A DNA stretch of 64,000 nucleotides from Scenedesmus sp. PABB004 (Eukaryota). The stretch covers positions 186,001-250,000 of the forward strand of contig JABVCE010000012.1 in the NCBI GenBank assembly GCA_014905635.1, in the 5' to 3' direction. Made by a program: the position numbers and the translations under genes. The notes under the pieces are model-generated. The model was not told where the DNA came from, ran no database searches, and was given only the letters and a program-made list of their open reading frames with translations. Below, piece by piece: positions 3,305 through 63,325 of the stretch. Numbering within the stretch: position 1 is the stretch's first letter; each line of letters begins with the position of its first letter.

Positions 3305-4281
3305 TCAGGGCCCGTCGTCCGGCGACGCGGGCTGCGCCCGGATCCACGCGGCCACGGCCGCGTGGCCGTTGTCTGCCGCCGCGCGATCGCACTTGGCGCG
3401 CCGCCACGGGCAGCCGTTGGCGCGCAGCCAGCGCAGCGCGTCCAGCTGCCCCTCCGCAGCCGCCCAGTAGCACGCCCCCTCGTCCCACGGCGCGGGCGGC
3501 GACTGGGCGCGCGCCCAGCGCAGCATCTCCAGGTCGCCGCGCGCCGCAGCATTGCTGCACACCGCAATGTCGCCCAGGGAAGCGGCGCCTGCGACCGCGC
3601 CCAGCGTAGCACCGCCAGCTGCCCGCCCTTGGTTGCTGCCTCGCACACAAAGTGCAGGCACAGCCCCTGGTCGCGCGCCCACTCCAGCACGGCGATCTGG
3701 CCGGCGCGTGCTGCTTCCCGGCCCACGCCCCAGTCCATGTCGCAGCCGGCGCCACGCAGCCAGGCCAGGCCCGCCACGTCGCCGCACTCTGCACGCCGCA
3801 CCACCAGCCACCACTGCAGAATCCAATCACTGCGCAACTCCCGCCAGGCCTCCTGCACCGCCTCCAGCGGCAGCTCGGGGCAGGTCAGAGAGATGGGGCC
3901 GCGGAAGCGCTCGCGCGCCGCCTTGCAGACCAGCCTGGCGGTCCACGCCTGCAGGGCCGGCGGCAGGAAGCTCAGGACGTGGAGCACGAGGGCCTCCGGC
4001 AGCTCCGGCAGCAGGCTGCGGGCGGCGGCGTGGGCAGGGCGGCCGGGGCGTGAGGGGCGGCGGTGGGGCGGCGCGCAGCGCCTGCTGCAGCCGGCTGAGG
4101 CTCGCTGCTCAGCGCCCGCCTGGCCAGCAGCACCAGTCATGAGGAAGGGGCAGCAGCGGCTGCGCGCCCACCTCGGCGCCGCCTCGTCGCCGCCGGGCGC
4201 CTCGCCCGCCGCTGCTGCCGCAGCCGCCCGCGCGCGCGTGGTCGGCCCGGCGCGCCGCTTGCCCGCCGGCGCAGCAGACAT
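3305..4281 (-). pseudogene. F-box/ankyrin-like repeat cassette gene, copy 1 (apparent 1-nt frameshift)
   Basis: MSAAPAGKRRAGPTTRAR, intron, LPELPEALVLHVLSFLPPALQAWTARLVCKAARERF, repeats GQIAVLEWARDQG / GDLEMLRWARAQ / GQLDALRWLRANGCPW. Frame changes near 3575 (one G missing in tgg ggc); could be an assembly error. Confidence 0.75.
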
Positions 4282-5145
4282 GGTGCCAACTAACAGCCTG
4301 CGGGCCAGCAGGGAGCAGCAGGCGGCGCCGGCGGCGGGCGCGAGCGTGCGCGGGCGGCGTGAGCGCAGCAGCAGCAGCAGCAGCGAGCGGCGCCCGTCCC
4401 CGCCCCCTGGCGCAGCGGCGCAGCGGCGGCCTGCCAGCGGCGCCCGGCGCGCGCAGGCCCGGCGGCCCACGCCACACGCCCGCCCGCCGCGCACCGCCGG
4501 CGCCCCTGCCGCCTGCAGCGGGCGCCGCGCAGCGCGGCCCGCCCGCCCGCTGCTGCCCTCCCCGCCTGCCCGCGCACCCGGCTCGCCTGGCGCTGCGTGG
4601 GCGGGTCGGCCCGGCCGTCAGACGCCCGACGCGCGTCGCCCCGCCTGGCCAGGGGCGCGGCGCGGGCGGGGGCGGGCGCTGGGCGGCGGCGGCGCGGCGC
4701 GTGCGGGAGCTGTGTGGGCCGCGGCCGGCGCTCGTGCTTGTGCGCGTGCGTGTGCGGCAGGGGCGCTGAGGGCGGCGGCTGTGGGCGGCGGGGCGGCGCG
4801 CGCGCGGGGCCTCCTCGGCGGCACGGCGCGGGCAGCCGGCCGGGCGGCGCCTGCGCCCTGGGCCCTGCACCGCGCCGCCCGCCGCGTTGCCGCTGCCGGG
4901 CGCGCGCGCAGCGCGGCGCGGCGGAGAGGCTGCCGCCGTCATCGCTCGGCGGCGCCAGACGCGGTCGGCCGGTTGCCAGCACGCGCTGCCGCTCGCTCGC
5001 GCCCGGCGCCGCCAACTCTCCTGGCTGCGTGCACGCAAGCACTCAAAATCCTTCACCCGCCGCCGTGGCACGGCCAGCCGCCAGTCGTGCGCGGCCAGTG
5101 CCTGGCGCAGCACGCCGGCCGCTGCAGTCTCGCGGCGTCACCCCT
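4282..5145 (-). repeat. Conserved upstream region of cassette copy 1 plus inter-copy spacer
   Basis: Contains the anchor gccctgggccctgcaccg (~4855-4872) found upstream of all copies. 4930-5145 matches 25375-25600 in reverse complement. Confidence 0.85.
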
Positions 5146-5175
5146 GAAAGGACCTCCTACTAGTCCCACATAATC

Positions 5176-6427
5176 CTAGTAGTAGTCCACATACTCCTCC
5201 TCATCCGAGTCATCATCCTCTACACCGCCGTCGTCCGCCGCCGCGGGCTGCGCCCGGACCCACGCGGCCACGGCCGCGTGGCCGTTGTCTGCCGCCACGC
5301 CCTCGCACATGCTGCGCACCCACGGGCAGCCGTTGGCGCGCAGCCAGCGCAGCGCCTCCAGCTGCCCGCACTGAGCCGCCGCGCAGCAGGTGTCTTCGTC
5401 CCACGGCGCCGGCTCGGCCTCGGCACGCGCCCAGCGCAGCATCTCCAGGTCGCCGCGCTCTGCAGCCTGCCGATACATGCTGCCTCCCCACCGCAGCGGC
5501 GGCGTCTGCGCGCGCGCCCAGCGCAGCACCGCCAGCTGCCCGCCCGCGGCTGCGCCGCTGCACACGCCCCTCAGGTCCAGCCCCTGGTCGCGCACCCACG
5601 CCAGCACGGCGAGCTGGCCGGCGCGTGCTGCTGCGTGGCCCACGTCCCCCAGGCGCAGCCCCTCGCCGCGCGCCCACTCCAGCACGGCGATGTGGCCGTG
5701 CTTTGCTGCTGCGTACCCCACGTCCCACAGGTTCAGCCCCTCACCACGCGCCCACTCCAGCACGGCGACCTGGCCGGCCGAGGCTGCTGCGTGCTCCACG
5801 TCACTCAGGCCCAGCCCCTCGCCGCGCGCCCACTCCAGCACGGCGACCTGGCCGGCGTGCGCTGCTCCTGAGCCCACCCCGCCCATGCTGCAGTCGGCGG
5901 CGCGCAGCCAGGCCAGGCCCGCCACGTCGCCGCACGCCGCGCGCGCCTCGGCCAGCTGCCGCTGCTGCATCCAATCACTGCGCAACTCCTGCCACGCCTC
6001 CTGCACCGCCGCCAGCGGCAGCTCGGGGCAGCGCAGCGAGATGGAGCCGCGGAAGCGCTCGCGCGCCGCCCTGCAGACCAGCTTGGCGGTCCACGCCTGC
6101 AGTGCCGGCGGCAGGAAGCTCAGGACGTGGAGCACGAGGGCCTCGGACAGGTCTGGCTGCGGGCTGTTGGCGGCGGCGTGGGCAGGGCGGCCGGGGCGCG
6201 AGGGGCGGCGGTGAGGCGGGCGCGCGGCGCCTGCTGCAGCCGGCTGAGGCTCGCTGCGCAGCGCCCGCTGGCCAGGCAGCGCCACCCAGGGGGAAGGGGC
6301 AGCAGCGGCAGCGCGCCCACCTCGGCGCCGCCTCGTCGCCGCCGGGCGCCTCGCCCGCCGCCGCCGCCGCAGCCGCCCGCGCGCGCATGGTCGGCCCGGC
6401 GCGCCGCTTGCCCGCCGGCGAAGACAT
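5176..6427 (-). CDS. F-box/ankyrin-like repeat cassette gene, copy 2 (intact; four tandem 25-aa repeats; acidic tail)
   Basis: Exon 1 MSSPAGKRRAGPTMRAR...EAAP, donor gtgggc. Exon 2 is open to the stop at 5176, with 75-bp units (AA.aGq.AVLeWargeGL.L) and tail EDDDSDEEEYVDYY. Confidence 0.85.
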
Positions 6428-7135
6428 GGCGGCGTCTGGGGGCCTGCGGGCCAGCAGGGAGCAGCAGGGGGGGCGCCGGCAGCGGGCGTGAGCGCGCAGG
6501 CGGCGTGAGCGCAGCAGCAGCAGCGCACGGCGCCCGCCCCCGCCCCGGCGCGGCGGCGCGGCGGTGTGCCTGCCAGCGGCGACCGGGGCGCGCAGTCCCG
6601 GCATCACACGCGACAAGCCCGCCCGCCGCGCACCGCCGGCGCCCCCGCCGCCCGCAGCGGGCGCCGCGCAGCGCGGCCCGCCCGCCGCTGCTGCCTGCTC
6701 ACTGCCCGCCCGCGCGCTGCCGGGCTCGCCTGGCGCTGCGTGGGCGGGTCAGCCCGGCCGTCAGGCGCCGGCGGCCGAAGCGCGTCGCCCCGCCTGGCCA
6801 GGGGCGCGCCGTGGGCGGGGCGGGCGCCGCAGTTCAAACGCTGCGCGGCGGCGCGTGTGCGTGCGGGAGCTGTGGGCCGCGGCGCTCGTGCGTGTGGCAG
6901 GGGCGCTGAGGGCGGCGGCTGTGGGCGGCGGGGCGGCGCGCGCGGGGGCCTCCTCAGCGGCGGCGCGGGCAGCCGGCCGGGCGGCGCCTGCGCCCTGGGC
7001 CCTGCACCGCGCCGCCCTCGCGCCGCCGCTGCCGGGCACGCGCAGCGCGGCACGGCGCAGAGGCTGCCAATCACGCTGCGGCGGCAGGGCGTGCGTGCGG
7101 CCCAGCACGGGCGTGCGGCCAGCCGGTTGCCAGAG
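6428..7135 (-). repeat. Conserved upstream region of cassette copy 2
   Basis: Colinear with 4282-4980, including gggtcagcccggccgtcagg, tgtgggcggcggggcggcgcg, gccctgggccctgcaccg and gccggttgccag. Confidence 0.85.
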
Positions 7136-7190: not shown

Positions 7191-9784
7191 TCACACCACC
7201 TCGCCCACGCCCCTGTCACGACCCGCCGCCCGCCCCCGCCCAGCCCCCACCGACGCGCGGCTGCCGCGCAAACCAGCCGCCGCTGACGGGCCGTGGGTAC
7301 GCCGGCGGCAAGCCGCCCAGCGCCGGCCCGCTGCCGCCGAGCGCGGGGCGGAAGTGGTCCCCCCGGCCCCGCCACCGCCGCCGCCGCCGTCGCTGTCGCT
7401 GTCGCTCCGCGCGTCGTCGGCGCGGTCCGGCAGCGGGCGGAACGCGTGGCGCGGCGACCCGCCGGCGCCGCCGCCGCCGCCGCCGGCCGCGAGCAGGCGC
7501 GCCTCCTCGCGCCAGCGCGCCGCGTACGTGAGCCCCGCCGCGAGCAGCAGCGCCGCGACGGAGGCCAGCGTGAGCAGCGAGATGACCCAGATTGCAAACT
7601 GGGCGCGCGGGCGCGTCGCGTCCTCGCCGCGCTCTGCGTCGAGGCACACGCCCCAGCGCCGCCGCCCCGTGGTCGCGTTGAGCGCGCGCAGGCAGCACAC
7701 GCGCCCGGCGCAGCCCTCGACGTACAGCCGCCCGCCGGCGAGCCGCAGCGCCGCGCCGCGCCCGCCGGCGTCCGGCGCCGGCGGCGCCTGCGCCGTGCCG
7801 TTGAGCGCGTGCCGCCAGAGCGTGCGCCCGCCCGCGAGCGACACCGCGGTCACCGCGGTCTTGCCGCCGCGCGTCGTAAGCGCGAGCACCAGCGCGCCCG
7901 CGGCCGCGTCGTGCACGGGCAGCAGCCAGGGCTGCGCCTCGTCGCCGTCCGCCAGCGCCGCCGTCCACGCGAGCGCGCCGGTCGCGGCCTCGACCGCGAT
8001 CACGCGGTCGGCCGCCACAAACGCGGCGAGCCGGCCCGCGAGCACGGGGGCCATGCCCCAGGCCTGCGCGCCGCGCGGGAAGGCGCCGCCGCCGTCGTGG
8101 CGCAGCGCCCACTGCACCGCGCCGCTGCGCATGCTGAGGCTGTACATGCACACGCTGCCGCCGGCAGGGTTTGGGGCAGAGCCGGCGCCGCCGCGCGCGC
8201 CGCCGCAGGCGCAGCCAAAGAGCGCGCTGCCGCCGGCGACCGCCGCGGCGGTGCAGCCGCCGTCGGGCGCGGCGTCGCGCGGCGGCGCCCAGCCGCGCCA
8301 CACGCTGCGCCCGGTCGCCGCGTCGAGCAGCTCCAGCTGGTCCATGCCCTCGCAGCTGCCCACGAGCAGCAGCGCGCCGCCGCCGCCGGCGCCGCCGCCG
8401 GCGATGGGCGAGGGCGTGTCACAGAAGGGCCCGTCGCGGCGCCACAGCAGCGCGCCGTCGGTGGCATTGATCCCCAGCACCGCGTCGCCGGCCGCGCCCG
8501 TCGCGAGCAGGAGCTCGCCGCGCTGTCCGGACAGCGCGAGCGACGCCGCGCCGAGCTCGACGCCGGGGAGCACCGCGCCGCGCCAGAGCGGCGCGCCGCT
8601 GCCGACCTCGAGCGCCGCGAGCCACGCGCCGCCGGCGGCGGGGTCGTTGAAGCCGGCGTATGCGGCGCACCCGCCCGGGGGCGCGCCGTGCGGCGCGGCG
8701 CCCGGCGCGGGGCCCGCGAGCGCCGCGAGCGCCGCGCCCGGCGCCGACGCGCGGTACTCCCAGCCGCGGGCGCCCGACTTGGCACGCAGGCCGTACACCC
8801 GCCCCGGCGGGCCGACCGCGGTGGCGAGGACGACGTCGCCCGCCTGCCGGGGAGGGAGACGCCGGCGGCGGCGGCGGCGGCGGCGGCGCGGGGTGAGGCC
8901 GGGGCGGGGCGGGGTGAGGCGGCAGCCGCGCGGCAGGCGCGTGCGGCGCGGCGGTGCGGCGGCGGCGCGGCGCGCGCGGTGGCGCGCCTCTTCGGCGTGC
9001 GCGAACGACGCGGTGGGCGGGAGGTCGATGTCTTTGACCCAGTAGCGCAGCCAGGAGTCGAGCGGGAAGCCCCACCGCACGTGTCCGCTGCCCGCGTTGA
9101 CCGCGTACAGCCCGGGGCCGCTCCAGGTCGTGTAGTAGACCGAGCGCCGGCCCTGAGGCAAAGGAGAGGGGCGGTGGTGCGGCGGCGGCGGCGGCGGCGG
9201 CAGGGAGGGGCCGTCGGCGGCGATGCGGCGGCGGGAGGGAGGGCCGCCGGCGGGGCGCGACCGCGGCGCACCACGGTCACGGCGCGGATGCCGCTGCTCG
9301 CGGTTGAGAAGGCGAACCAGATCACGCGGCCGTGGGTCTCGTTGACGCCGTAGACGTTCAAGCAGGGGTCGGGGCCCGCGCACTGCTCCGGCGTGAGCTG
9401 CGCACGCGGCGCGCGGCGCGCGGCGGGCGGGCGGGCGGGGCTGGGCAGCTCCGTCCGAGGCCCGCCTCTGCACAGCGGGGTCCCGGCACCCACGGACGGG
9501 CAGCGCGGACGGAGCTGCCCAGCCCCGCCCGCAGCTGGGCAGCGCGTCCGGCTGGGCAGCACGGTCCCGGCGCCCACGCGCGTGCCGGGGGCGCGCGGGG
9601 CCGGGGGCGGCGCGGCAGCGGCGCCGCTGCTCGCGGCGCTCACCGCGACGCTCCAGAGAGCGACGTCGCGCTTGCTGCTGGGCTGGGGCGTGATGGCGTC
9701 TGCCAGGCACGCCGCCGCGACGCAGAGCAGCCCGAGCAGCAGGCGAGAGGGCGCCGCGCCGGGGCGCCGCGGCACCGCCGCCAT
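7191..9784 (-). CDS. PQQ-like/BamB-type beta-propeller repeat protein with signal peptide and C-terminal TM helix
   Basis: Signal LLLGLLCVAAACLA. Repeated A-x-D/N-x-x-x-G-x-x-x-W blades (YAVNAGSGHVRW, GINATDGALLW, LLDAATGRSVW, AVEAATGALAW, ALNATTGRRRW). TM FAIWVISLLTLASVAALLLAAGL. Three probable introns. Confidence 0.8.
9431..9532. repeat. Perfect 27-bp inverted repeat with 48-nt loop in probable intron 1 of the PQQ-like gene
   Basis: gcgggcggggctgggcagctccgtccg (9431-9457) is the exact reverse complement of 9506-9532. Confidence 0.9.
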
Positions 9785-10022
9785 CTCGCGCCGCCGCCGA
9801 GCGGGGATGCGCCGCGGGGGGAGCGCGCCGAGAGCCACTCTCAGGCCATCGACTGCCGCGCCGCGCGCTGAGTGTCGGCGCTGGACGACTGCAGCCGGCG
9901 GCGGCGCGAAAGATGCCGCTGTCGCTGCTGCCGCTCGAGCGTCACTGCTCGGCAAGACCTAGGCCCCGATCATGGAGCGTGCTGCAGCTCGGCGAAGCCG
10001 ACACGTCGCCCAGTCCTAGTTT

Positions 10023-15802: not shown

Positions 15803-16767
15803 TCACTCCGGCTGCGCCCGGATCCACGCGACCACGGCCTCGTGGCCCTCGCCTGCCAAGAGCCGGCACCAGTCACGCCGCCACGGGCAGCCGTTGGCGC
15901 GCAGCCAGCGCAGCGTGTCCAGCTGCCCGTGCGCAACGGCCGCCTCGCACGTCTCCTCGTCCCACGGCGCGGGCTCGGCCTGGGGGCGCGCCCAGCGCAG
16001 CATGTTGAGGTCGCCGCGACGTGCAGCGTAGTAGCACACCCCACACCATGAGCCGCCCCACGGCAGCGGCGGCGTCTGCGCGCGCGCCCAGCGCAGCACC
16101 GCCATCTGCCCGCCCTTGGCTGCTGCAACGCACACCACCTCCAGGTCCAGCCCCTGGTCGCGTGCCCACTCCAGCACGGCGAGGTGGCCGTGCTCCGCTG
16201 CTGCCCAGGCCACGCCGCCCATGTCGCAGCTGCGCCGCCAGCGGCGGCGCGCAGCCAGGCCAGGCCCGCCACGTCGCCGCACGCCGCGCGCGCCTCGGCC
16301 AGCTGCCGCTGCCGCTCCCCATCACCCTGCACCGCCCGCCACGCCTCCTGCACCGCCGCCAGCGGCAGTTCGGGGCAGGTCAGAGAGATGGGGCCGCGGA
16401 AGCGCTCGCGCGCCGCCTTGCAGACCAGCTTGGCGGTCCACGCCCGCAGGGCCGGCGGCAGGAAGCTCAGGACGTGGAGCACGAGGGCCTCGGGCAGCTC
16501 CGGCAGCGGGCTGCGGGCGGCGGCGTGGGCAGGGCGGCCGGGGTGTGAGGGGCGGCGGTGAGGCGGCGCGCAGCGCCTGCTGCAGCTGGCTGAGGCCCAG
16601 TGCTCAGCGCCCGCTTGGCCAGCAGCACCAGTCAGGCGGCGCCAGCAGCAGCAGCGCGCCCACCTCGGCGCCGCCTCGCCGCCGCCGGGCGCCTCGCCCG
16701 CCGCTGCTGCAGTCGCCACTGCGCTCATGGTCGGCCTGGCGGGCCGCTTGTCCTCTGGCGACGACAT
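15803..16767 (-). pseudogene. F-box/ankyrin-like cassette gene, copy 3 (frameshifted)
   Basis: MSSPEDKRPARPT..., F-box-like LPELPEALVLHVLSFL. A small insertion near 16230-16245 shifts the frame before CDMGGVAW. The C-terminal repeats are in ORF 15803..16282. Confidence 0.8.
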
Positions 16768-17345
16768 GGCGCCGGCTGGGGGTGTGCAGACCAGCAGGGA
16801 GCAGCAGGCGGCGCCGGCAGCGGGCACGAGCGCGCGGGCGGCGTGAGCGCAGCAGCAGCAGCGCACGGCGCCCGGCCCCGCCCCGGCGCGGCGGCACGGC
16901 GGCGGGCCTGACAGCGGCGCCCGGGGCGCGCAGGACCGGCGGAGCACGCCACACGCCCGCCACCCGCGCACCGCCGCCGCCCGCAGCGGGCGCCGCGCAG
17001 CGCGGCCCGCCCGCCGCTGCCCTCCCCGCCTGCCCGCGCACCCGGCTCGCCTGGCGCTGCGCTGGGCGGGTCAGCCCGGCCTTCAGGCACCCGCAGGTCC
17101 ACGCCCCGCCTGGCCAGGGGCGCGCCGCGGGCGGGGGCGGGCGCTGGGCGGCGGCAGCGCGCGTGCGTGCTCGAGCTGTGGGCCGCGGCCGGCTCTCGTG
17201 CGTGTGCGTGTGTGGCAGGGAGGCGCTGAGGGCGGCGGCTGTGGGCAGCGGGCCGGCGCGTGGGGGTCCTCCTGCTCGGTGGCGGCGCGGGCAGCCGGCC
17301 GGGCAGCGCCTGCGCCCTGGGCCCTGCACCGCCGCTGCCGGGCGG
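16768..17345 (-). repeat. Conserved upstream region of cassette copy 3
   Basis: Same ordered motifs; anchor at ~17313-17331. Confidence 0.85.
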
Positions 17346-17574
17346 GCGCGGGCTGCAGCGCGGCGGCGCCGCTGGCGGGGGCGCCCTGACCGTGGTCAGC
17401 TGTCGGCCGAGCGCGGGTGACCACTCGAGCTGCGCGCGCGCCCTCGAACCGGTGCGCGCAGTGCGCGCAGTGCGGTCAGCCGGTCGCCGGCCGCGGGTGT
17501 GCAACGTGCGCCCCCGCCACGCACGCCGCCGTGCGCAGCCGGCCGCAGTCAAGGGGCGCCTCATCATATTCGTT

Positions 17575-18597
17575 TCACTCCCAGCCCCCCTCCTCATCCT
17601 TTTCCTCCTCCTCGGGGCCGTCGTCCGCCGCCACGGGCTGCGCCCGGATCCACGCGACCACGGCCTCGTGGCCGTTGTCTGCCGCCACGCGCTCGCACTT
17701 GACGCGCGCCCACGGGCAGCCGTTGGCGCGCAGCCAGCGCAGCGCCTCCAGCTGCCCGCACTGAGCCGCCGCCCAGCAGGTGTCTTCGTCCCACGGCGCC
17801 GGCTCGGCCTCGGCACGCGCCCAGCGCAGCATCTCCAGGTCGCCGCGCTGCGCAGCCTGCCAGCACACACTGCCTCCCCACCGCAGCGGCGGCGCCTGCG
17901 CGCGCGCCCAGCGCAGCGCCGGCAGCTGCCCGCCGTCGGCTGCGCCGCCGCACACGCCCCACAGGTCCAGCCCCTGGTCGCGCGCCCACTCCAGCACGGC
18001 GAGCTGGCCGTGCGCCGCTGCTGTCCGGCACACGCCGTCCACCTCGAACACGCGGCCCATGTCGCAGCCAGCAGTGCGCAGCCAGGCCAGCCCCGCCACG
18101 TCGCCGCACGCGCGCGTGCCTTGGCGAGCTTGCACAGCTGCTTCAACCCATCACCCTGCACCGCCTGCCACGCCTCCTGCACCGCCGCCAGCGGCAGCTC
18201 GGGGCAACGCAGCGAGACGACCGTGGCGCCCCGGAAGCGCTCGCGCGCCGCCTTGCAGACCAGCCTGGCGGTCCACGCTTGCAGGGCCGGCGGCAGGAAG
18301 CTCAGGGCGTGTAGCACGAGCGGCTCGGGCAGCTCCGGCAGCGGGCTGCGGGCGGTGCTGGCGGGGCGAGCGGGTGCGGGGCGGCGGTGAGGCGGCGCGC
18401 GGCGCCTGCTGCAGCTGGCTGAGGCTCAGCGCTCAGCGCCCGCCTGGCCAGCAGCACCAGCAGCAGCCGCACGCCCACCTCGGCGTTGCCTCCGCGCTGC
18501 CGGGCGCCTCGCCTGCGGCGGCGGGCACCGCTGCCGCAGCCGCCCGCGCGCGCGTGGTCGGCCCGGCGCGCCGCTTGCCCGCCGGCGCAGCAGACAT
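17575..18597 (-). pseudogene. F-box/ankyrin-like cassette gene, copy 4 (apparent 1-nt frameshift)
   Basis: Frame changes at ~18110 (KLAKAR/ACGDVAG, one base short of consensus). Otherwise complete, with acidic tail EEEEKDEEGGWE. Confidence 0.75.
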
Positions 18598-19230
18598 GGC
18601 GGGTGCTGGGGGCCTGCGGGCCAGCAGGGAGCAGCAGGCAGGGCGCCGGCAGCGGGCGTGAGCGCGGGGGCGGCGTGAGCGCAGCAGCAGCAGCGCGCGG
18701 CGCCCGCCCCCGCCCCGGCGCGGCGGCACGGCGGCGGGCCTGACAGCGGCGCCCGGGGCGCGCAGGCCCGGCGGAGCACGGCACACGCCCGCCACCCGCG
18801 CACCGCCGCCGCCCGCAGCGGGCGCCGCGCAGCGCGGCCCGCCCGCCGCTGCTGCCCCCCCGCCCGCCCGCGCGCGCGGCTCGCCTGGCGCTGCGCTGGG
18901 CGGGTCAGCCCGGCCTTCAGGCACCCGCAGGTCCACGCCCCGCCTGGCCAGAGGCGCGGGCGGCGGCAGGCGCTGGGCGGAGGCGGCGCGGTGCGTGCGG
19001 ACCTGTGGGCCGCGGCCGGCGCTTAGTGTGCGTGCGTGTGTGGCAGGGAGGCGCTGAGGGCGGCGGCGGCTGTGGGCGGCGGGGCGGCGCGCGCGGGGGC
19101 CTCCTCGGCGGCGGCGCGGGCAGCCGGCGGCGCCTGCGCCCTGGGCCCTGCACCGCTGCTCGGGCGCGGCGCGGCACGCAGAGGGAGTGCGCGCGGCCCG
19201 CCCAGGCGCGCTGGTCAGCCGGTTGCACGC
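18598..19230 (-). repeat. Conserved upstream region of cassette copy 4
   Basis: Anchor at ~19138-19155; gccggttgc motif at ~19218. Confidence 0.85.
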
Positions 19231-23217: not shown

Positions 23218-23467
23218 GGCGGCGCGCGCGGCGGCAGCAGCAACAGCCGCCCGCCCGCCGCCGCGCGCAGCAGCCCCGCGAGGGCGCGCCCGCTCGACGG
23301 CAGGCCGGGGGAGCCTGCAGAAGTGCGCCGCTTCAGAGACCGGGCTGGATCGGCTCGCGACGTGCGCCGGGGCAGCGGCGGTTGCGGGACCCGGCGGCTG
23401 GTGCTGCTCTGCCTGCCTGCTGCTCGCTGGGCACAGGCATAGGGCCGCGGTCGTTGGGGAGCGGCAG

Positions 23468-25345: not shown

Positions 25346-25374
25346 GGAGGTGGAATGAGGGCTTTTTTTAGCGA

Positions 25375-35756: not shown

Positions 35757-35792
<36 letters not shown>

Positions 35793-43494: not shown

Positions 43495-44815
43495 TCACAC
43501 GCGCTGCGCCGCCGCGACAGCCGCGTCAGCGACTGCCTTGACCGCCGCGCCCAGCACGCCCGCCGCGCCGACGCTCGCGAGCGAGTCGACTGCCGCCAGG
43601 CTGACCACGTCCGGCGGCGCCGGCGCGCCCTCGCCCACGCGCTGCAGGTCGCGCAGCCGCAGCACGAGCGCACGCACGTCAGGCGCCTGCGGCGGCGGGA
43701 CGCGGCGGCGGGCCGCGCTGGGCGCGCGGTCCGCGTGCGCGCGCCTGCTTCTGCGCCGGCGCCGCCGCTGCGCCGCGCGCCCCGCAGCGCCGCGGCCGCA
43801 CCTCGCCGAGCCCTGCCGCGCGCATGGCGCGCAGCTGGTCGTTGTACAGCTGCGTCAGGCTCTCCTGCAGGGCGCCCATGACCGCCGCGCGCGCGGGCGG
43901 CGGCGCGAGCGCGGCCGCCGCGCCGGCGGCCAGCCCCGCCGCCCGCAGCAGCCCCAGCAGCGCCGACGGCCGCGCGCGGTGCCTGCGGCGCGGCGCGGCG
44001 CGGCGCGGCGCGGCGCGCTGAGCCGCGGCGCGGCAGCGGGCAGGCGGGGCGGGGGCGCTGCTGCGCGCGCTGCGCCGCATGCGCTGTGCTCTGTGCGACC
44101 CGCATCTGTCAAGCCGGCCGCTGCTTGGCGCCGGTCAGTGTTCAGAGGCCGCGGCGCTCGCTGTGGGATGGCCGCAGCGGGGTGCGCCGCGGGGCTGGCG
44201 CGGCGCACCCGCGCCGCCGCGGGGCGCGGCGGCGGCCGCCATCCGGGCTGCGGGCTGGGCGGCGCGCGCGCGTGCGGCGCGTGGCCGTGGCCGGCCGCGC
44301 GGGCGGTGAGCGGGCGCTCACCGCGGCAGCAGCTGCTGCACCTCCGCCAGCGCCTCGCGCTCCTGGTCGGCGAAAAGCGCGGCGTCCGGCCGGCCCCGCA
44401 GCACCGCCTGCTGCCCCGCCAGCACCTGCGCCATGGCCGCCTGCGGGCGCGCGGCGCGCGGCGCGCTGGGCGCGCGGCGCGCTGGGCTCGCCGGCGCGTG
44501 CGCGTCGCGCCGCCGCCGCACCTCTGCCGCGTGCGCCTGGCGCAGCAGCGACCGCAGCAGCGCCTGCCGCTCCCGCTCCGGCACCTGCTCCGGCTCGTCG
44601 TGCTGCTCCAGGAAGGAGAAGGCCTCCGGCTGCGGCGCGGCGGGCTGGCCGCCGCCGACGCCGCTTTTGCTGCTGCTGCTGCCGCTGCCGCCGCCGCTGT
44701 GCGCCGCGCGGCGGCCCGCCGCTCCGCCAGCAGCTGCATGGGCGTGGGCGCAGCCCAGGGCGCCGCCCCAGCCCCGCCCGAGCAGCGCCTGCGCGGCGCG
44801 GAGGGCGGGCGCCAT
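43495..44815 (-). CDS. COQ7-like (ferritin-like) protein with degenerate di-iron motifs
   Basis: RQAHAAE/AAMAQVLAGQQAVL, DQEREAL, RARPSALL, G.A.GA..AL, QESLTQLYNDQLR and LRD align by eye with COQ7; mitochondrial-type N-terminus. Confidence 0.68.
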
Positions 44816-45099
44816 CTGGTGGTGCTGCTGCTGGCGCCGGGAGCGCGCGCGCTGCGCTGGGGAGTGAGTTGCGGGGGCGGCACACTGCTCGCTGTCAACT
44901 CGCCAGGCGGTCGTCAACCCCGGCGCGGGCTCTGGCGCCAGAACGCCGCGACCTGGCGCGCTCTCCGCCGCCGCCCGCCACTCCCGCGCGCCCCCCGTCC
45001 TCCACGACGACGACACGCGGTGCCACCCACCCAGCCAGACAGGCGCCGCTGCTCACACGCCGGCCGCCGCTTCGCCGCCGCTGCGCCGCCGCCGCGACG

Positions 45100-46565
45100 A
45101 TGAAGCGGCGCTTCGACTCGGACGCGGAGGACTCTGACGGACCGCCGGAGGAGGAGCTGGCAGCGCGGCGGCCGCCGGCGCGGCGGCGAGCAGCCGCCGC
45201 GGGCGCCGACGCCGGCGGCGGCAGCAGCAGCCGCGGCGGCGGCTCGGACGACGGCGGCGGCAGCGACGGCAGCGGCTCCGACGACGGCAGCGACGCGGAG
45301 CTGGAGGAGGCGGAGCGCGCGCTCGAGGAGCGGCTCGCGGACGTGCCGTTTGAGGTGCTCGCGCGCCTCGCCGGCGACGGCGCCGGCCCCAGCCCCGCCG
45401 CAGCGCGCGCGGCCGCGGCGGCGGCCAAGGCGCGCGGGAGTTTCCACCGCGAATCCAAGAACCGCCCCCAGGAGCTCTCGAGCAAGCGCCCCGTGTCGCG
45501 CTTCCGGGAGGTCATCCAGGTCGCCAAGCAGTGAGCGCCGCCGCCGCCGCGGAAGCTCTCGCCCGCCCTCCCCCTTCCCGCGCGCCGCCCCCCCCCCCCG
45601 CCACGCCCGGCCCCTCGCTGCCGGCGCGCTGCGCCGCGCCCGCCGCCGCGCCGCCCGGCCCCCGCCCACCGCACCGCCGCGCCGCGCCGCCGCCGGCTGC
45701 CGGTCAGCCCCGCCAAGGACCCGCGCTTTGACGCGACGATCGGCGGCGCGCCGTTTGACCGGGCGCGCTTTGCGGCGCGCTACGGCTTCCTGTATGACGA
45801 GGTGCTGCCCGCGGAGCGCGCGGCGGTCAAGGACGCGCTCAAGGTGCGGCGGGCGGCGCGTGTGCGGGCGTGCGTGTGGGCGCGGGGGCGTGCGTCTGCT
45901 GTCTGCTTGCCTGGCGGAGGGCAGGGGCCGGTCTGGGGACGCAGGCGCGCGGACGGGCGGGCCGCAGCGTGCGCGCGCTGCGTGCGTGCTGCCGCGCCGG
46001 CGCCGACCGGCCGGCCGCCCGCCCGCGCCCCGGCTGCCTCCGCCGCCGCAGAAGGAGAAGCGCGAGGGCAAGCGGCGCGAGCTGGCGGCGCAGCTCACGC
46101 GCCTGCAGCAGCAGCTCGCGGACGAGCGCGCGCGGCGCAAGAGCGAGGCGCTGGGCAAGGAATGGAAGGTGGGCGGACGTGCCGCTGCCGCTGCCGCCGC
46201 CGCTGCCGCTGCCGCTGCTGCTGGGGCGCGTCCGCCGGCTGCGGCGGGGCCTTGCGGCGGTGGAGGCGGCTCTGCGCACGCGCGCACGCAGCGCCGGCGC
46301 GGCCCGGCCCGCTGCCCACGCCGCCGCGCTCGCTTGCCCCGTGCCGCGCGCCGCGCAGGCCCAGGAGAAGGCGGCGGTCGCGGGCGGCAAGGCGCCCTTT
46401 TTCCTCGGCCGCGGCGCGCAGCGCACGCGGCAGCTCGTGTCGCGCTACGAGGAGCTCAAGAGCGCGGGGCAGCTGGACAAGTTCATGGAGAAGCGGCGCA
46501 AGAAGAACGCGGCCAAGGACCACAGGTACCTGCCGACCGGCCGCCGCGGCGGCGGCGGCGAGTGA
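45100..46565 (+). CDS. RRP36: rRNA biogenesis protein RRP36 (DUF947)
   Basis: KNRPQELSSKRPVSRFR, DPRFD, YGFLYD, GKAPFFL, YEELKSAGQLDKFMEKRRKKNAAKD. Confidence 0.92.
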
Positions 46566-46674
46566 GCGGCGCGCCGCGGCGCGGCGAGCGACGCGAGCGC
46601 GAGCGAGCGGCGCGAGAGCGAGCCACGGCCGGCCCGGCCTGCAACCGCGGCGTGCGGCGCCGCACCGCGCCCGC

Positions 46675-47293
46675 GCCCGGCAGCGGCGACACGAGGAGCG
46701 GCGGTGCAGGGCCCAGGGCGCAGGCGCCGCCCGGCCGGCTGCCCGCGCCGCCGCCGAGCAGGAGGCCCCCACGACCCGCCCCGCCGCCCACAGCCGCCGC
46801 CCTCAGCGCCTCCCTGCCACACACGCACACACGCACGAGCGCCGGCCGCGGCCCACAGCTCCCGCACGCACACGCGCCGCTGCTGTTCGAATTGCAGCGC
46901 CCGCCCCCGCCCGCGGCGCGCCCCTGGCCAGGCGGGGCGACGCGCGTCGGGCGCCTGACGGCCGGGCTGACCCGCCCAGCGCAGCACCAGGCGAGCCGCG
47001 CGCGCGGGCGGGCGGGGAGGGCAGCGGCGGCAGGCAGGCAGCGCTGCTGCGCGGCGCCCGCTGCGGGCGGCGGGGGCACCGGCGGTGCGCGGGTGGCGGG
47101 CGTGTGGCGTGTACCGCCGCGCCTGCGCGCCCCGGGCGCCGCTGGCAGGCCCGCCGCCGCGCCGCCGCGCCACGGGGCGGGGGCGGGCGCCGCGTGCTGC
47201 TGCTGCCGCTGCGCTCACGCCGCCCGCGTGCTCGCGCCCGCTGCCGGCGGCGCCTGCTGCTCCCTGCTGGCCCGCAGGCTCCCAGGCGGCGCC
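46675..47293 (+). repeat. Conserved upstream region of cassette copy 8
   Basis: Anchor cggtgcagggcccagggcgcaggcg at ~46702. Confidence 0.85.
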
Positions 47294-48174
47294 ATGTCCT
47301 CGCCGGCGGGCAAGCGGCGCGCCGGGCCGACCATGCGCGCGCGGGCGGCAGCGGCAGCGGCGGCGGGCGAGGCGCCCGGCGGCGACGAGGCGGCGCCGAG
47401 GTGGGCGCTGCTGCTGCTGCTGCCCCCCCCCCCCCACACACACACAAACGGCTGGTGCTGCTTGGCTGCCACTTCACCGCCGCGCCCGCCCTGCCCCGCG
47501 CGCGTCGCCGCCAGCAGCCCGCTGCCGGAGCTGCCTATGCCCCTCGTGCTCCACGTCCTGAGCTTCCTGCCGCCGGCCCTGCGGGCGTGGGCCGCCAAGC
47601 TGGTCTGCAAGGCGGCACGCGAGCGCTTCTGCGGTGCCACAGACGTCTCGCTGCGCTGCCCCGAGCTGCCGCTGGCGGCGGTGCAGGAGGCCTGGCGGGC
47701 GGTGCAGGGTGACGGGTGGGAGCAGCAGTCTAAGCTCGCCAAGGCGCGCGCGGCGTGCATCGACATGGTGGGGCTGGCCTGGCTGCGCGGCGCTGGCTGC
47801 TGGATGGGCGGTGTGGGCTGGGAAGCAGCACAGCACGGCCAGCTCGCCGTGCTGGAGTGGGCACGCGACCAGGGGCTGGGCCTGGAGCTCGTGTGCGCTG
47901 GAGCGTGCTGGAGGAGGCGTGCGGTGTCGCGGCTGAGCGGGGGCACCTGGAGGCGCTGCGCTGGCTGCGCGCCAACGGCTGCCCTTGGGCGCGCGGCGAA
48001 TGTGAGAGCGTGGCGGCAGGCGAAGGGCACGAGGCCGTGGCCGCGTGGATCCGGGCGCAGCCTGCGGCGCCGGACGATGAGCCTGTCTGGGACTCGGATG
48101 AGGAAGAGGAGGAGGGCTGGAGCTCGGACGAGGGGGAGAACGAGGAGGGGGAGGAGGGGGAGCATGCTGCGTGA
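47294..48174 (+). pseudogene. F-box/ankyrin-like cassette gene, copy 8 (two repeats deleted, frameshifted)
   Basis: The junction at ~47905 joins LELVCAG to the last repeat out of frame; long acidic tail. Confidence 0.8.
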
Positions 48175-48409
48175 GTGCGGCCGGCAGTGCGCCGCCCCAG
48201 GCTGCCGCGGCTGTGCCCGGCCGCGGCTGGCGGCCAACCGGTTGCGCGTGTGCGTGTGTGGGGCCGCGCCGCGCTGCGTGCGCCCAGCGGCAACGGACGG
48301 AGCTGGCGTCACGTTGGGTGAAACGCGCGGGGTGCGCGCCTCGCTCACGCCTCGCCCGCCCCGCGCGGCGCCTGCTGCCAGCGGCAGACCCCCCCGACTG
48401 GAGGAGGGA

Positions 48410-51400
48410 TCACTGCTTCGCCTTGCCGCCGCTCCCGCCGCGTGACAGCGCGCGCGCGAGCCGCCGCCCGAGGCCCTCGCTGCCGCTGCTGCCGCTGCCC
48501 GGGGCGCCGCCCGCCTTGGCCGGCGACCTGAAGATAGGTGCCGCCCGGCCGACGGGCGCCGACACGGCGCTGGCGCCCAAGCGCGGGCTGGTGCCGCCGC
48601 TCGCGTCGCCAGCGGTGCCCGCCGCCGGCCTCGTCGCCGCGCCCGGGCCGGCGTCGGCGCTGCCAGTGCTGCCGCTGCGCGCTGCGGGGATGCGGGACGG
48701 CCGGGACGCGCCGACGCCCGCACCCGGCCTCGCGCCGCCCTTGACCGCTGCTGCGAGCGCTGGCGGCATCGCGAGCGCGCCGGCGGTGCGCGGCGAGGGC
48801 GGCACGGAGCCGGCCGGCGAGGCGGGCGCCGAGCCACTCCCCAACCTGCGGTCCAACGCGCCGCGCGCGGCGGCCTGCGGGCCGGCCCGCGCGCCGTCGG
48901 GGCTGGCAAGCTGGCCCGGCAGCGCCAGCGGCGGCGCGGCACGGCGTGGCGGCGCTGTGGCCGCCTGCGCGCTGCTGCCAGCTTGCGTCTCCTCCAATGG
49001 CCCGGCCGCCCGCATGCCCGGCGCCTGCGAGCCCGCGGGGGCGGGCTCGGCGGCGCTCCCACGCGGGTCAAAGTGCGCCGCCAGAAGCTGGACGAAGCCC
49101 GGCTGCGGGTTGAGCACCACCTGCTCCGCCACGGGCCCCGCCAGCGCGGCCGCTGAGGGCCACTCGGCCGCGCCGCGGCGCGGGCTGCCGCCGCCGCCGC
49201 CGGGAGTGGTGCCGCCGCGCAGCCGCTCCAGCTCGCCCTCCATGCGCGTGCGCTGCTGCTGCTGCTGCCGCGCCGGCACCGCGCCCGCCTCCGCCAGCAC
49301 GGCCTGCAGTCGCGCGACCGCCTCGGGCGCGAGCCCGGCGAGCGGCCCGCCGGGCGCGGCCGCCGCGCGCAGCGCGGCGTCCGCGGCAGCCTGCTGCCCC
49401 TCTGCCGCGGCGTGCAGCTCGTCCAGCTGGGCCTCGAGCACCACCAGACGCTCCTCGCTGCGCGCGGCACGCGGGGCGCGCGTGGCGGGTCAGCGGGTCA
49501 GCGGGGGGTACGCGCTGCGCCGCTGCGCTGTGAGTGCGACGTGTGCTCCTGCGCACCTCGCGCACAGGCGCTGCAGCGCGAGGTCGCGGTCGCCCGCGAG
49601 CTGCGTCACCGCGCCGCAGCGGCTCGCGAGCGCAGCCTCAAGGTCCGCCGCCGTGCGCCGCGCTGCAATGAGCGCCTCCAGCGCCTCGTCGCGGCTGAGG
49701 CTCTGCGCCGCCTGCGCCTCGGCGAGCTCGCTGGTGAGGCCAGCGAGCGCGCTGATGTCGTGCGCCACCGCGGCGAGGCCGGCGGAGCGGCGCTCCGCCG
49801 CGCGCGCCGTGCCTGCGCGGGCCGCCCGGCGCGGCGCGGCGGGGTGGGCCGGTGGGCCAGCGCAGCGCGGCACGCTCGTGCGGCGCGGCGCCTCACCGCC
49901 GGGCCAGCTGCCGCGGCCGTTGCCCTCGCCCTCCTGCCTCAGCTTGGCCAGCGCGCGCCGCGCAAGTGCCTGCGCCTGCGCCTCGCCGCTGCCGTCGGCG
50001 GCGGGCTCGCCGCCGGGCACGACGACCACCACCTCGCGTGACGCGAGCGCCGAGTGCCGCCCCGCGCCGCCGCCGCCGCCGCCGGGCGCCGCCGCCGCGG
50101 AGGGCGAGGCCGGCGCGCTGTCGTCCTCGCGCGTTGGCAGCGCGGGCCGCCGGCTGCTGGCCTCGGCGAGGCTCTGGGTCATGTGGGCTGGGTTGGAGTA
50201 GGTCAGGCTCTGCAAGCACGGGGGCGGCGGTCGGGGCCGGGGCAGCACAGTGAGGGGCCGAGACCGGGACGCCGCTGGCAGTGACCGCGTGCCACGGTGG
50301 CAAGGCAGTCGGGCCCTGCCGCCTGCACCGGCGCAGCCCACCCACCTCCTCCTCGGGCTCGGCGGCAAAGGGCCGGCTGCACAGCGCGCCCTCGCTGAGC
50401 TCGGACGGCTGCGCCAGCTGCTGCTCCGGCAGGCGCGGCAGCCCGCCCAGCGGCGCCGCGAGCGGCCGCAGCACGGTCGCCGGCGCCGCGTCGCCGCCCG
50501 CGTTGCTCGGCTGCATGCTCTGCTCGGCGCCGCCGGGCAGCTGGAAGCCCGCGCCCGCCGCCGTGGCTTGGCGGCCTGCCGCCAGCGCCGCGGCGAGCTG
50601 CGCCGCGAGGTCCTCGTTGGACCGCCGCAGCGCCGCGAGCTCGCCCGCCAGCGCCGCGAGCTCTGCTTCAAGCGCCGCGCCGCGCGCGCCCTGCGCGGCG
50701 AGGCGGTCGCGCTCGGCGCGCAGCTCTGCCTGCTGCTGCGTCGCCGCGGCGAGGCCCTCGTCGAGGCCGCGTCGGTCCGCGGCGAGCGCCGCGCTGGCCG
50801 CCTCCGCCGCCGCCGCGGCCTCCGTCGCCTCGCGCAGCGCCGCGCGCAGCTCCGCGCCGGCCGCCTCGGCCGCCGCTCGCTCGGCGCGCGCAGAAGCCAG
50901 CTCGGCTGCGAGCGCGGCTGCGTCGGGGCTGGCCGGGGCTGGTGCGACGTTGCCGCCGTCACCGTCACTGCCGCCGCTGGGGGCCGGGAACGCGCGGGCG
51001 ACGATTGCCTCAACCTCCTGCGCGCTGCGCGCCGCGAGCAGGCTCTCCGGCAGCGCTGCGTCCGACGCGCGCTCGGCCGCGGCGACGGCGCCCGTGCCCG
51101 CGGGGCTGGCGGCCGCGGGCGCCTGCACGCGGCGGCGCGGGCGGCGCGGGCGGTCGGCCGCGGCGACGCGCGCCGGCAGCAGCAGAAAGCTGGCAGCAGG
51201 GGCGCGCCGGCGCCCGCGCCCGCACCTCGGCACCGTCGCCGCCTGCCAGCACCTCCTGCGCGCTCTGGCTGATCAGCTCCAGCCGCAGGTCCTGCGCCTG
51301 CATGCTCAGCAGGCTCTGCTTTGCCGCTGCCATCGCCGCCATCGCCGGCTCCAGCGCCGCCCCGACCGCGAGGCTGCGGGTCGTCGCTGCGCCGACCTGG

Positions 51401-61541: not shown

Positions 61542-61675
61542 CGCGGGCGCGGCGCTCGCGCTGTGCGGCGGCGGTGTGCAGCAGGCGCGGCGCATCGGTG
61601 CGGGGCGCCGGCGTGCCTGCGTGCGCCTGGTTGACTCGTCTGTTGAACAACTCTCACGCCCGGGCACACACCAGC

Positions 61676-62714
61676 TCACGCGGGCTGCGCCCGCATCCAC
61701 GCGGCCACGGCCTCGTGGCCCTCGGCTTCCGCCCACCGCTCGCACTCGGCGCGCCACCACGGGCAGCCGTTGGCGCGCAGCCAGCGCAGCGCCTCCAGCT
61801 GCCCGCTATGAGCCGCCGCCCAGCACGTGTCCTCATCCCACGGCGCGGGCTTGTCCTGGGCGCGCAGCCAGCGCAGCATCTCCAGGTCACTGTGCTGTGC
61901 AGCGATGGTGCACACATCGCCGCCCCACGGCAGCGGCGGCGTCTGCGCGCGTGCCCAGCGCAGCACGGCCATCTGCCCGCCCTCGGCTGCTGAGCTGCAC
62001 ACATCGCGCAGGCTCAGCCTCTTGCCCCGCGCCCACTCCAGCACGGTGAGGTGGCCGGCGCGCGCTGCTGTGCAGCACACAAACCGCAGGTCCAGCCCCT
62101 CGCCGCGCGCCCACTCCAGCACGGCGAGCTGGCCGTGCCCCGCTGCTGCGGAGCACACGTCACTGTCTATCTCGCAGCCGGCACCGCGCAGCCAGGCCAG
62201 CCCCGGCACGTCGCCGCACGCCGCGCGCGCCCCGGCCAGCCGCCGCTGCTGCTCCTGCTGCCCCCACCGGTCACCTTGCACCGCCCGCCAGGCCTCCTGC
62301 ACCGCCGCCAGCGACAGCTCGGGGCAACGCAGCGAGACGCGCCTGGCGCCGCGGAAGCGCTCGTGCGCCGCCTTGCAGACCTGCCTGGCGGTCCACGCCT
62401 GCAGGGCCGGAGGCAGGAAGCTCAGGACGTGGAGCACGAGGGGCTCGGACAGCTCTGGCGGGCTGCGGGTGACACGGGGCGTGCGCGCAGGGCGGCGGTG
62501 AGGGCGCGGCGCCTGCTGCAGCTGGCTGTGACTCGCTGCGCAGCGCCCGCCTGGCCAGGCAGCGCCGCCCAGGGGGGAGGGCGGGCGTGAGCAGCAGCAG
62601 CGCCCACCTCGGCGCCGCCTCGTCGCCGCCGGATGCCTCGCACGCCGCCGCCAGCGCAACCGCCCGCGCGCGCGTGGTCGGCCCGGCGCGCCGCTTGCCC
62701 GCCGGCGAAGACAT
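61676..62714 (-). CDS. F-box/ankyrin-like cassette gene, copy 9 (intact)
   Basis: Exon 1 MSSPAGKRRAGPTTRAR; exon 2 open from SPPELSEPLVLHVLSFL to WMRAQPA*. Confidence 0.85.
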
Positions 62715-63325
62715 GGCGGGTTCTGGGGGCCTGCGTGCCAGAAGGGAACAGGCTGCGGCGCCGGCGGCGGGCGCGAGCGCGCGGGCGGCGTGAGCGCAGC
62801 AGCAGCAGCGCGCGGCGCCCGCCCCCCCCCCCCCCAGCGCGGCGGCACGGCGGCGGGCCTGCCAGCGGCGCCCGGGGCGCGCAGGCCCGGCGGGTCACGC
62901 CACACGCCCGCCCACCGCGCACCGCCGGCGCCCCCGCCGCGCACAGCAGCGGGCGCTGCGCAGCGCGGCCCGCCCGCCGCTGTTGCCTCCTCCCCGCCCG
63001 CCCGCGCGCGGCTCGCCTGGCGGTGCGCTGGGCGGGTCAGTCCGGCCGTCAGGCGCCCCCAGGTCCGCGCCCCGCCTTGCCGCGTGGGCGCCGCGTTCGA
63101 ACGCTGGGCGGCGGCAGCGGCGCAGTGCGTGCGGGAGCTGCGGGCCGCGGCCGGCGCTCGTGTGCGTGCGTGTGCGGCAGGGAGGCGCTGAGGGCGGCGG
63201 CTGGGCGGAGGGGCGGCGCGCGCGGGGGGCCTCCTCGGCGGCACGGCGTGGGCAGCCGGCCGGGCGGCGCCCTGGGCCCTGGGCCCTGCACCGCGCCGCC
63301 CGCGTGTTGCCGCTGCCGGGCGCGG
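62715..63325 (-). repeat. Conserved upstream region of cassette copy 9
   Basis: Anchor at ~63275-63293. Confidence 0.85.

Follow-up and report, generated by a model that had tools for sequence, protein, structure and literature searches.

How did one gene come to stand nine times among unrelated genes? The question is raised by a window of 64,000 nucleotides (nt), the whole stretch of nuclear DNA analysed here, from the green alga Scenedesmus sp. PABB004, in which nine copies (c1 to c9 along the window) of a single cassette carry a non-coding head, a short exon, an intron and a second exon with a candidate F-box and ankyrin repeats. The initial annotation of this sequence had proposed a cassette copied and pasted at the DNA level, either as a non-autonomous element or as a selfish or defence gene family. 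DNA-level copying and the gene family are supported by our analysis, and the defined mobile element is not. With a probability of about 0.6, we consider the copies to be a lineage-specific family of predicted Skp1-Cullin-F-box (SCF) ubiquitin-ligase adaptors, amplified by DNA-level copying of whole transcription units together with gene conversion.

Layout and relationships of the nine copies

Using positions 17201-19300 as the BLASTN query against the window, we obtained nine colinear full-length matches at the nine sites first listed, whose coordinates mark the lower-numbered end of each coding part (the stop codon in minus-strand copies and the ATG in plus-strand copies). These matches show 76-84% identity to the query over 1.4-1.6 kb, and a repeat search puts all of them in register. 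The copies measure 1.55-1.96 kb, lie on both strands (six on the minus and three on the plus strand) and total 15,292 of the 64,000 nt, that is, 23.9%, in agreement with the initial estimate of roughly a quarter of the window. The flanks display mean identities of 40-46%, which is noise, with the exception of c5 and c6, and are otherwise unrelated.

The layout described initially, with a head, an exon containing a KRR motif, an intron, an F-box-like segment and ankyrin repeats, is common to all nine copies. The head before the ATG is non-coding and 560-650 nt long; exon 1 comprises 104-119 nt, its length being 2 modulo 3 in every copy, and encodes KRR in eight of the nine (KRP in c3); the intron spans 117-221 nt and runs from GT to AG throughout. 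Both the intron and the upstream DNA are retained in nine of nine copies, as had been claimed. The motif proposed to lie near the common start, GCAGGGCCCAGGGCGCAGGCGCCGCC, is found nine times in the window with at most three mismatches and not once in 100 shuffles, and these sites are eight cassette heads and one solo copy, the variant in the head of c9 exceeding three mismatches. The reading frame is kept in three of the nine copies (c2, c5 and c9), while c1, c3, c4, c6 and c7 are frameshifted and c8 has lost repeats.

Mean pairwise identity reaches 87-90% in the head and 89% in the F-box part, but falls to 82% for the intron and to 79% for the ankyrin repeats that come last. For the F-box part the ratio of nonsynonymous to synonymous substitution rates (dN/dS) comes to 0.75, and for the ankyrin stretches to 1.03-1.25, with scaffold residues conserved and exposed positions varied. 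A conserved F-box joined to variable ankyrin repeats fits the fast-evolving, defence-type gene family considered at the outset, and the pattern is that of a birth-and-death adaptor family, on whose binding surface diversifying selection would be acting. Substitutions in the head lack 3-periodicity, as do those in the true exons, and ATG is depleted on both strands of the head in copies that are not independent of each other, so neither observation bears on hidden coding capacity.

Two of the copies, c5 and c6, belong to a segmental duplication of about 5 kb that takes in part of the upstream Kelch gene and the downstream chorismate-mutase-like gene. The flanks of the two blocks are 95-100% identical, whereas the cassette interior is merely 71-90% identical; it falls from 98% to 82% where the 5' module, a stretch of ~150 nt at the start of the head, comes to an end, and returns to 100% just past a solo copy of this module on the 3' side. 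Considering this divergent interior and the different types of 3' end in c5 and c6, an entire cassette has been overwritten after the duplication. One and the same tandem pair is seen in three versions, c2-c1, c4-c3 and c5-solo, in which c2 pairs up with c4 and c1 with c3, and the c2-c1 spacer plus the start of the c1 head is 80% identical to the 3' flank and solo module of c5 (25377-25726). Along the copies we identified 13 near-identical tracts of 108-217 nt (96.7-99.4% identity) whose partners change from tract to tract. In c5 the partner is successively c6, c4, c3 and c9, some tracts are inverted, and partners lie up to 38 kb apart. The nearest-neighbour copy changes by region. Flanking homology in subsets of copies and mosaic tracts with changing partners are what duplication and gene conversion leave behind. 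A larger segment common to every copy was not found, c7, c8 and c9 sharing no flank with other copies in the window.

The predicted product and its family

The exon-2 translations of four copies were scanned with Pfam. Ank_4 scored above its gathering cut-off of 22.7 bits in three of them (26.0, 30.3 and 35.6 bits), the translation below it being that of c8, which has lost most repeats. Matches to F-box-like or F-box at residues 2-35 were sub-threshold in three of the four (E 0.001-0.09; 13.0-19.2 bits against 24.3). A profile built from the nine N-terminal segments and compared with the PDB gave six matches, all of them F-box proteins aligned over the F-box (E 0.0098-0.18), and PF12937 or PF00646 is precomputed on the paralogues P0074 and P0077 and on a relative from Raphidocelis, P0090. 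The AlphaFold2 model of c5 exon 2 is a helical repeat with a predicted local distance difference test score (pLDDT) of 87.5, for which all 44 PDB matches listed by Foldseek are ankyrin-repeat or designed-repeat proteins (best E 8e-6); the model of the N-terminal part alone has a pLDDT of 64. The ankyrin assignment thus combines a repeat profile above threshold with a solenoid fold in the predicted model. The repeat period is 26-29 amino acids (aa) against the canonical 33, with ~4-8 units per copy in variable number, and the extra units of c2 were gained through a run of 78-nt tandem repeats.

Pfam, the PDB profile and the predicted fold agree on the F-box and ankyrin adaptor candidate that had been put forward, and this architecture is reasonably supported by sequence and model. 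The product is most likely an SCF substrate adaptor, its predicted N-terminal F-box being followed by ankyrin repeats that would form the binding surface. Relatives outside PABB004 are at most ~42% identical. The Raphidocelis protein (39%) implies that the architecture is older than PABB004, and one distant relative, on a metagenome contig of 62% GC (L001:1574-2101), has the same F-box wording, LPTSLVLHVLSFLPP, ahead of repeats of another sort; this type of F-box therefore extends beyond PABB004. The head-core pattern gave no match in the metagenome scans.

With the F-box core of c5 as query, 36 cores were recovered in 27 annotated PABB004 proteins. Spread is strongly local, as anticipated, with 31 of the 36 cores on a single contig of 1,235,393 bp and the others on contigs that have five other lengths. 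P0088 is a 28th protein, containing c7 without the core. The copies of the window that are annotated are c5 (P0076, 100% identity), c6 (P0086), c7 (P0088), c8 (P0015) and c9 (P0081); c1 to c4 were not found among the annotated proteins, and an extra protein search added no PABB004 member. The locus tags listed for family members run from HT031_003954 to 004038, which would correspond to an island of ~85 gene models and roughly 0.5 Mb if the tags track gene order. Two F-box cores occur in each of P0075, P0077, P0078, P0079, P0080 and P0001, and two pairs in P0074, giving eight pairs in total, of which that of P0078 is not a strict tandem, an LHC-like segment lying between its cores. A divergent subfamily, with 55-62% identity in the F-box core, is also located behind host genes on other contigs.

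In 21 of the 28 models, more than 200 aa of unrelated protein are N-terminal to the cassette. The fused hosts include two histone-deacetylase-like genes, aspartyl aminopeptidase, beta-glucosidase, fbiC, FZR2, rnf10, RRP36, BMS1, ribulose-phosphate epimerase, TFIIB and photolyase. We take these fusions to be gene-finder errors in stop-poor DNA, the cassettes usually lying close behind a co-oriented gene, and users of the assembly should be warned that at least 21 of its gene models fuse housekeeping proteins to the cassette. Merged public models are seen in P0074, P0078, P0099 and others, one model of 1,966 aa comprising two deacetylase genes and four cassettes, and mergers of co-oriented neighbours may have lowered in part the gene count of 7,092. 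Outside the window, P0002, the second cassette of P0077 and the fourth of P0074 begin with another type of exon 1 (MS..LS.SL..L), which lacks KRR; it bears a weak, loose resemblance to MSASLSLANI, the start of the mature part of chorismate mutase CM1 (35821-35870), and may derive from exon exchange at the shared module.

Routes of copying

In all nine copies the 5' limit of homology lies within ~50 nt of CCCGGCAGCGGC...GGTGCAGGGCCC, preceded by a pre-head stretch that varies from 37 to ~120 nt. The 16-nt motif TGGCAACCGGCYGRCC is located 40-120 nt further upstream in c1, c2, c3, c4, c7 and the solo module of c5, and its six matches in the window are all cassette-adjacent, with 0.9 expected by chance. 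On the other side, homology stops near the stop codon in two unrelated types of 3' end: c2, c4, c5 and c8 have an acidic tail, c2 and c5 have a long 3' untranslated region (UTR) in common, and c3, c6 and c9 end at once. Seven of the nine cassettes are placed directly behind a co-oriented gene, c5 and c6 being without one upstream; five of them follow unrelated hosts, with 73-185 nt from stop codon to head core, and two follow another cassette, at 247 and 307 nt. When the module was searched as an nhmmer profile, 11 sites were detected in the window, which are the nine heads and two solo copies, and the module recurs downstream of a cassette solely in places that hold a tandem partner or what remains of one. 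A third solo candidate (20387-20498), a BLAST match of 77%, was not recovered by this profile and was dropped.

In the explanation that we favour, a whole transcription unit, from just past the 3' end signal of the previous gene to its own stop codon or short 3'UTR, would be duplicated at the DNA level, often as a tandem pair and sometimes as a larger segment with neighbouring genes. Frequent conversion over short tracts (~100-220 nt), which links copies of the same or opposite strand across tens of kb, homogenises the head and the F-box, unequal exchange operates inside the 78-nt repeat run, and exposed ankyrin positions diversify while many copies decay, as in birth-and-death evolution. Such adaptors may target proteins of viruses or of other foreign origin. 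The core promoter probably lies in the module, and in a compact genome a copy would survive only if it landed in the narrow space after a gene and in the orientation of that gene, which would give the stereotyped position. The cassette may begin just past the end of the previous gene, and the repeated unit could correspond to one transcription unit.

Several observations weigh against this explanation. Conservation is higher in the non-coding head than in the intron or the ankyrin exons, for which duplication alone is insufficient. The singletons c7, c8 and c9 have no flank in common with any other copy, but the points at which their homology sets in agree to within ~50 nt, a common limit that counts against independent segmental duplications because these would be expected to have random ends; in addition, their head cores lie 73-140 nt past the stops of three unrelated co-oriented genes. 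Among the annotated models 21 of 28 are co-oriented with the gene in front against 50% expected, a proportion that is biased, since fusion needs a co-oriented neighbour. Members are also found on other contigs, both canonical (P0003 and P0087, the latter the BMS1 fusion) and divergent (P0005, P0099 and P0101), and the P0087 model reads through head-like sequence with 65% identity over 37 aa to the head DNA, in a search with composition correction off for this GC-rich sequence; P0003 was compared over exon 1 and intron. Finally, some of the frameshifts possibly reflect indel errors of the long-read assembly. Plain segmental duplication does not predict the placement of the singletons, the head on the BMS1-fused copy or a head more conserved than the intron, all of which could be accounted for by targeted insertion, module-guided recombination or selection for sense-oriented copies in gaps.

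The foremost alternative, which we regard as unlikely, is a non-autonomous DNA element, undescribed or Helitron-like, that carries the F-box and ankyrin gene as cargo between a fixed 5' and a variable 3' end, makes mostly local hops and settles in the sense orientation in the zone where the preceding gene terminates. The nearly identical 5' limit of nine copies, three of which are singletons that follow unrelated genes, is what such an element would leave, its 3' ends varying as in rolling-circle read-through; at least ~20 different host genes are trailed by a cassette, copies reach other contigs and the BMS1-fused one has a head, TGGCAACCGGCYGRCC is exclusively cassette-adjacent in the window, and the genome is otherwise poor in repeats (1.31%, from a section of PMC12571836). 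No transposon hallmark was found in the window, as the initial annotation had already stated. Inverted matches that link the 5' zone to the 3' zone are at most 8-12 nt long, where shuffled sequences average 8.9-10.8, so there is no terminal inverted repeat (TIR) above chance, and no poly(A) run occurs at the 3' ends of the copies. Outside the copies there are 274 stop-to-stop open reading frames (ORFs) with a length of 110 aa or more; a Pfam scan of these, in which 12 had any match, disclosed no transposase, reverse transcriptase, Rep, helicase or recombinase family in the window, where no Rfam family reached its gathering score either. Direct matches at the copy ends are 10-13 nt long, the chance level for this composition, and the ends are not base-exact. 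Within the window, the signature of a Helitron was not found, there being no Rep-helicase, no common exact 5' terminus and two classes of 3' end. A defined non-autonomous element is further disfavoured by the ragged ends (two unrelated 3' types and the variable pre-head), unshared limits having been named beforehand as an observation that would count against an element, and by the inclusion of c5 and c6 with their neighbours in a ~5-kb duplication, the tandem pairs and the conversion mosaics. Segmental duplication and tandem pairs account for six of the nine copies, and gene conversion can imitate shared limits.

We hold as rather doubtful a broader proposal, that the adaptor gene is a self-spreading unit from promoter to stop, of a kind undescribed in eukaryotes, which copies itself sense-oriented behind genes, either by some other transposition route or through recombination or gap repair at its head module of ~150 nt. 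Such a unit may provide its hosts with a 3' end signal and would have built the ~0.5-Mb island, with dozens of diversifying copies, in a repeat-poor genome. If it is true that placement reflects mechanism, this would be a new route by which a gene of the cell spreads with no machinery from transposons.

Improbable, in our estimation, is a recombination cassette in which the ~150-nt module acts as a portable promoter front, where recombination or gap repair inserts, deletes and swaps cassettes, tandem pairs possibly giving off circles as intermediates, following an integron-like logic without a dedicated integrase. Each tandem unit is bounded by modules, solo modules precede both chorismate-mutase paralogues, and the identity of c5 and c6 shifts exactly at module ends, their 3' end types being different. 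These c5/c6 boundaries are, however, where donor homology must end, so ordinary gene conversion explains them; no module or remnant stands behind c1, c3, c7, c8 or c9 among the 11 sites of the window, the supposed third solo copy was not recovered, and the two solo modules seen are copies of one event.

Old dispersed paralogues kept young-looking by concerted evolution, or RNA-templated copies of unspliced transcripts, are very improbable origins. Ongoing conversion makes the ages of copies unreadable, and the divergent members behind host genes on other contigs would suit old paralogues. In the RNA version the 5' limit would be the transcription start and expression would come by read-through from the host gene, in agreement with the fixed 5' limit, the variable 3' ends and the co-orientation with the upstream gene. 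The copies nevertheless lack the marks of retrocopies or long terminal repeat (LTR) elements, given that the intron is kept in nine of nine and no A-run follows, and read-through does not suit c5 and c6, which have no co-oriented upstream gene, c5 being intact all the same. Bicistronic read-through was also set aside, with an inter-ORF distance of ~700 nt after long host ORFs (compared with the relevant part of PMC7896298). Mis-assembled duplicates are the least credible source of the copies: although the assembly is a long-read one of few contigs (PMC12571836, in the section on assembly) and some frameshifts could be indel errors, the copies differ by 10-25%, each is joined to different single-copy genes, and independent annotated proteins show further distinct copies.

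Genomic setting and comparison with known families

The coordinates of the copies and of the features around them are given in Table 1. G+C is ~80% along the whole window, and a comparative study gives the genome as 39.8 Mb in 77 contigs, 7,092 genes, 78.5% GC and a repeat content of 1.31%, the lowest of its order (PMC12571836).

Table 1. Positions of cassettes and associated features in the 64,000-nt window.
Feature	Position	Strand	BLASTN extent	Details
c1	3305..4918	-	3297-4918	ATG 4281; head down to 4282; intron 4171-4016; exon 2 from 4015; family-frame stop 3305; frameshift in ankyrin region; second unit of tandem pair c2->c1
c2	5176..7132	-	5196-7014	intact, 364 aa; ATG 6427; intron 6320-6164; exon 2 6163-5176; 7 motif-matched ankyrin units, acidic tail, long 3'UTR; pre-head extends to TGGCAACCGGCTGGCC motif at 7117-7132; head core 185 nt past PQQ_2 gene stop
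78-nt (26-aa) tandem repeat run within c2	5482..5958	-		repeat search; adds ankyrin units
c3	15803..17351	-	15810-17351	ATG 16767; intron 16663-16511; frameshift shortly past F-box; short 3' end, palindrome AGCGTTGCAACGCT directly after stop; second unit of c4->c3
c4	17575..19230	-	17589-19174	ATG 18597; intron 18478-18346; 1-nt frameshift, acidic tail; head core 109 nt past stop of co-oriented ORF X
c5	23460..25229	+	23490-25162	intact, 327 aa; head 23460-24089; exon 1 24090-24199; intron 24200-24355; exon 2 24356-25229; protein identical to N-terminal part of P0076; divergent Kelch gene upstream
c6	33540..35151	+	33566-35144	ATG 34147; intron 34257-34477; frameshift late in ankyrin repeats; short 3' end, TGA 35149-35151
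c7	37562..39255	-	37576-39228	ATG 38617; intron 38507-38359; frameshift past F-box; head core 73 nt past PAN/GH17-like stop (annotated fused as P0088)
c8	46660..48445	+	46654-48120	ATG 47294; intron 47401-47517; most ankyrin repeats deleted, acidic tail; head core 140 nt past RRP36 stop (annotated fused as P0015)
c9	61676..63330	-	61681-63298	intact, 297 aa; ATG 62714; intron 62607-62463; exon 2 62462-61676; C-terminal part of P0081; head core 109 nt past stop of co-oriented gene
Segmental duplication block A	22593..27624	.		flanks 95-100% identical to block B
Segmental duplication block B	32671..36598	.		partner of block A
Solo module (first ~130 nt of head)	25595..25725	+		between c5 3'UTR and chorismate-mutase-like gene
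Solo module	35201..35321	+		~50 nt past c6 stop, ~113 nt before chorismate-mutase ATG (35435; P0086)
Host gene 5' of c2, PQQ_2 beta-propeller ORF	7194..9941	-		Pfam; GCAACC 61 nt past stop
Host gene 5' of c8, RRP36, three ORF pieces	43882..46565	+		Pfam; GCAACC 76 nt past stop
Host gene 5' of c9, 3' end	63399..64000	-		coding-type G+C at third codon positions, 0.95; GCAACA 27 nt past stop
Host 3' ends examined	7132-7193, 19213-19263, 39240-39275, 46563-46650, 63360-63401			
GCAAC/GTTGC palindromes, approximate	15790-15803, 48540-48560, 3230-3265			c3; c8 3' flank; c1 3' flank

Pfam families among the neighbours of the copies are PQQ_2 (a propeller), Kelch (twice), PAN, thaumatin, COQ7, RRP36 and SANT_DAMP1 (SWC4-like), the gene of the last being convergent with c9. 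The co-oriented host in front of c4 is ORF X, and the host in front of c7 is a PAN/GH17-like gene. Two Kelch-repeat paralogues on the minus strand (21077-23332 and 32248-34428) stand head-to-head with c5 and c6; Kelch is another frequent partner domain of the F-box. In or beside the second paralogue, at 32291-32498, there is a 26-nt tandem repeat of ~8 units, up to 99% alike. C-runs of ~14-25 nt are private to single copies (23690-23720 in the c5 head and 34300-34330 in the c6 intron) and are likely spots for long-read indel errors or slippage.

At the 3' ends of the host genes, GCAAC followed by C or A occurs 20-76 nt past the stop in five of five, its background frequency on each strand being 0.67 per kb, and it is often found past cassette stops as well. 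TGTAA, described as the poly(A) signal of related algae in part of PMC7896298, occurs only seven times over both strands of the 64 kb. From their position, GCAAC-type motifs might mark 3' ends in this extreme-GC alga, a weak suggestion because the thaumatin gene (stop 42958), which is not a host, has no such motif within 200 nt. Palindromes of GCAAC and GTTGC are also present after several cassette stops, in the forms AGCGTTGCAACGCT, CAACCGGTTG and GCAAC-N12-GTTGC.

Among known systems, Legionella AnkB and the poxvirus ANK/PRANC proteins also unite an F-box with ankyrin repeats, the F-box-like part of poxvirus ANK proteins being C-terminal. Nothing ties the algal genes to a virus: the same Pfam scan of 274 ORFs revealed no viral hallmark in the window, and the copies have host-like GC and introns. 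Fission-yeast wtf drivers are dispersed conversion mosaics with variable internal repeats, intact and broken copies and flanking LTRs; the algal family is like them in its conversion mosaics, variable repeat number and mix of intact and broken copies, and unlike them in its type of protein, in having no flanking LTRs and in giving no sign of drive or of a poison-antidote system. Helitrons and gene-capturing transposons resemble the algal copies in their fixed 5' limit, variable 3' end, host-type gene sequence and absence of TIRs. In contrast to Helitrons, the algal copies come with no Rep-helicase in the window, no exact termini and no shared 3' hairpin-CTRR, their cargo is a whole and often intact gene with its intron and upstream DNA, and several are segmental or tandem duplicates.

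The F-box and ankyrin proteins of Acanthamoeba (P0012), Balamuthia (P0034) and Raphidocelis (P0090) are similar in architecture, with an N-terminal F-box followed by repeats of the PF13637 kind, and are set apart from the algal family by the low identity (at most ~42%) seen outside PABB004. The F-box families of nematodes and plants, as characterised in portions of the studies on wild isolates of C. elegans (PMC8120010) and on the 'genomic drift' of plant FBX genes (PMC3030570), are alike in their species-specific numbers and clusters, in a conserved F-box joined to a variable substrate part, in their pseudogenes and in the action of duplication and conversion. The algal family differs from them in that the partner of the F-box is a short ankyrin-type repeat of 26-29 aa, in that the unit is a whole transcription unit of 1.6-2 kb whose 0.6-kb head is more conserved than its coding repeats, in that copies are found singly or in twos behind unrelated co-oriented genes and not just in arrays, and in its host genome, which has 39.8 Mb and 1.31% repeats in the corresponding section of PMC12571836. 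Even if the expansion is an ordinary one, it offers a clear algal case of a fast-evolving predicted SCF-adaptor family with concerted evolution.

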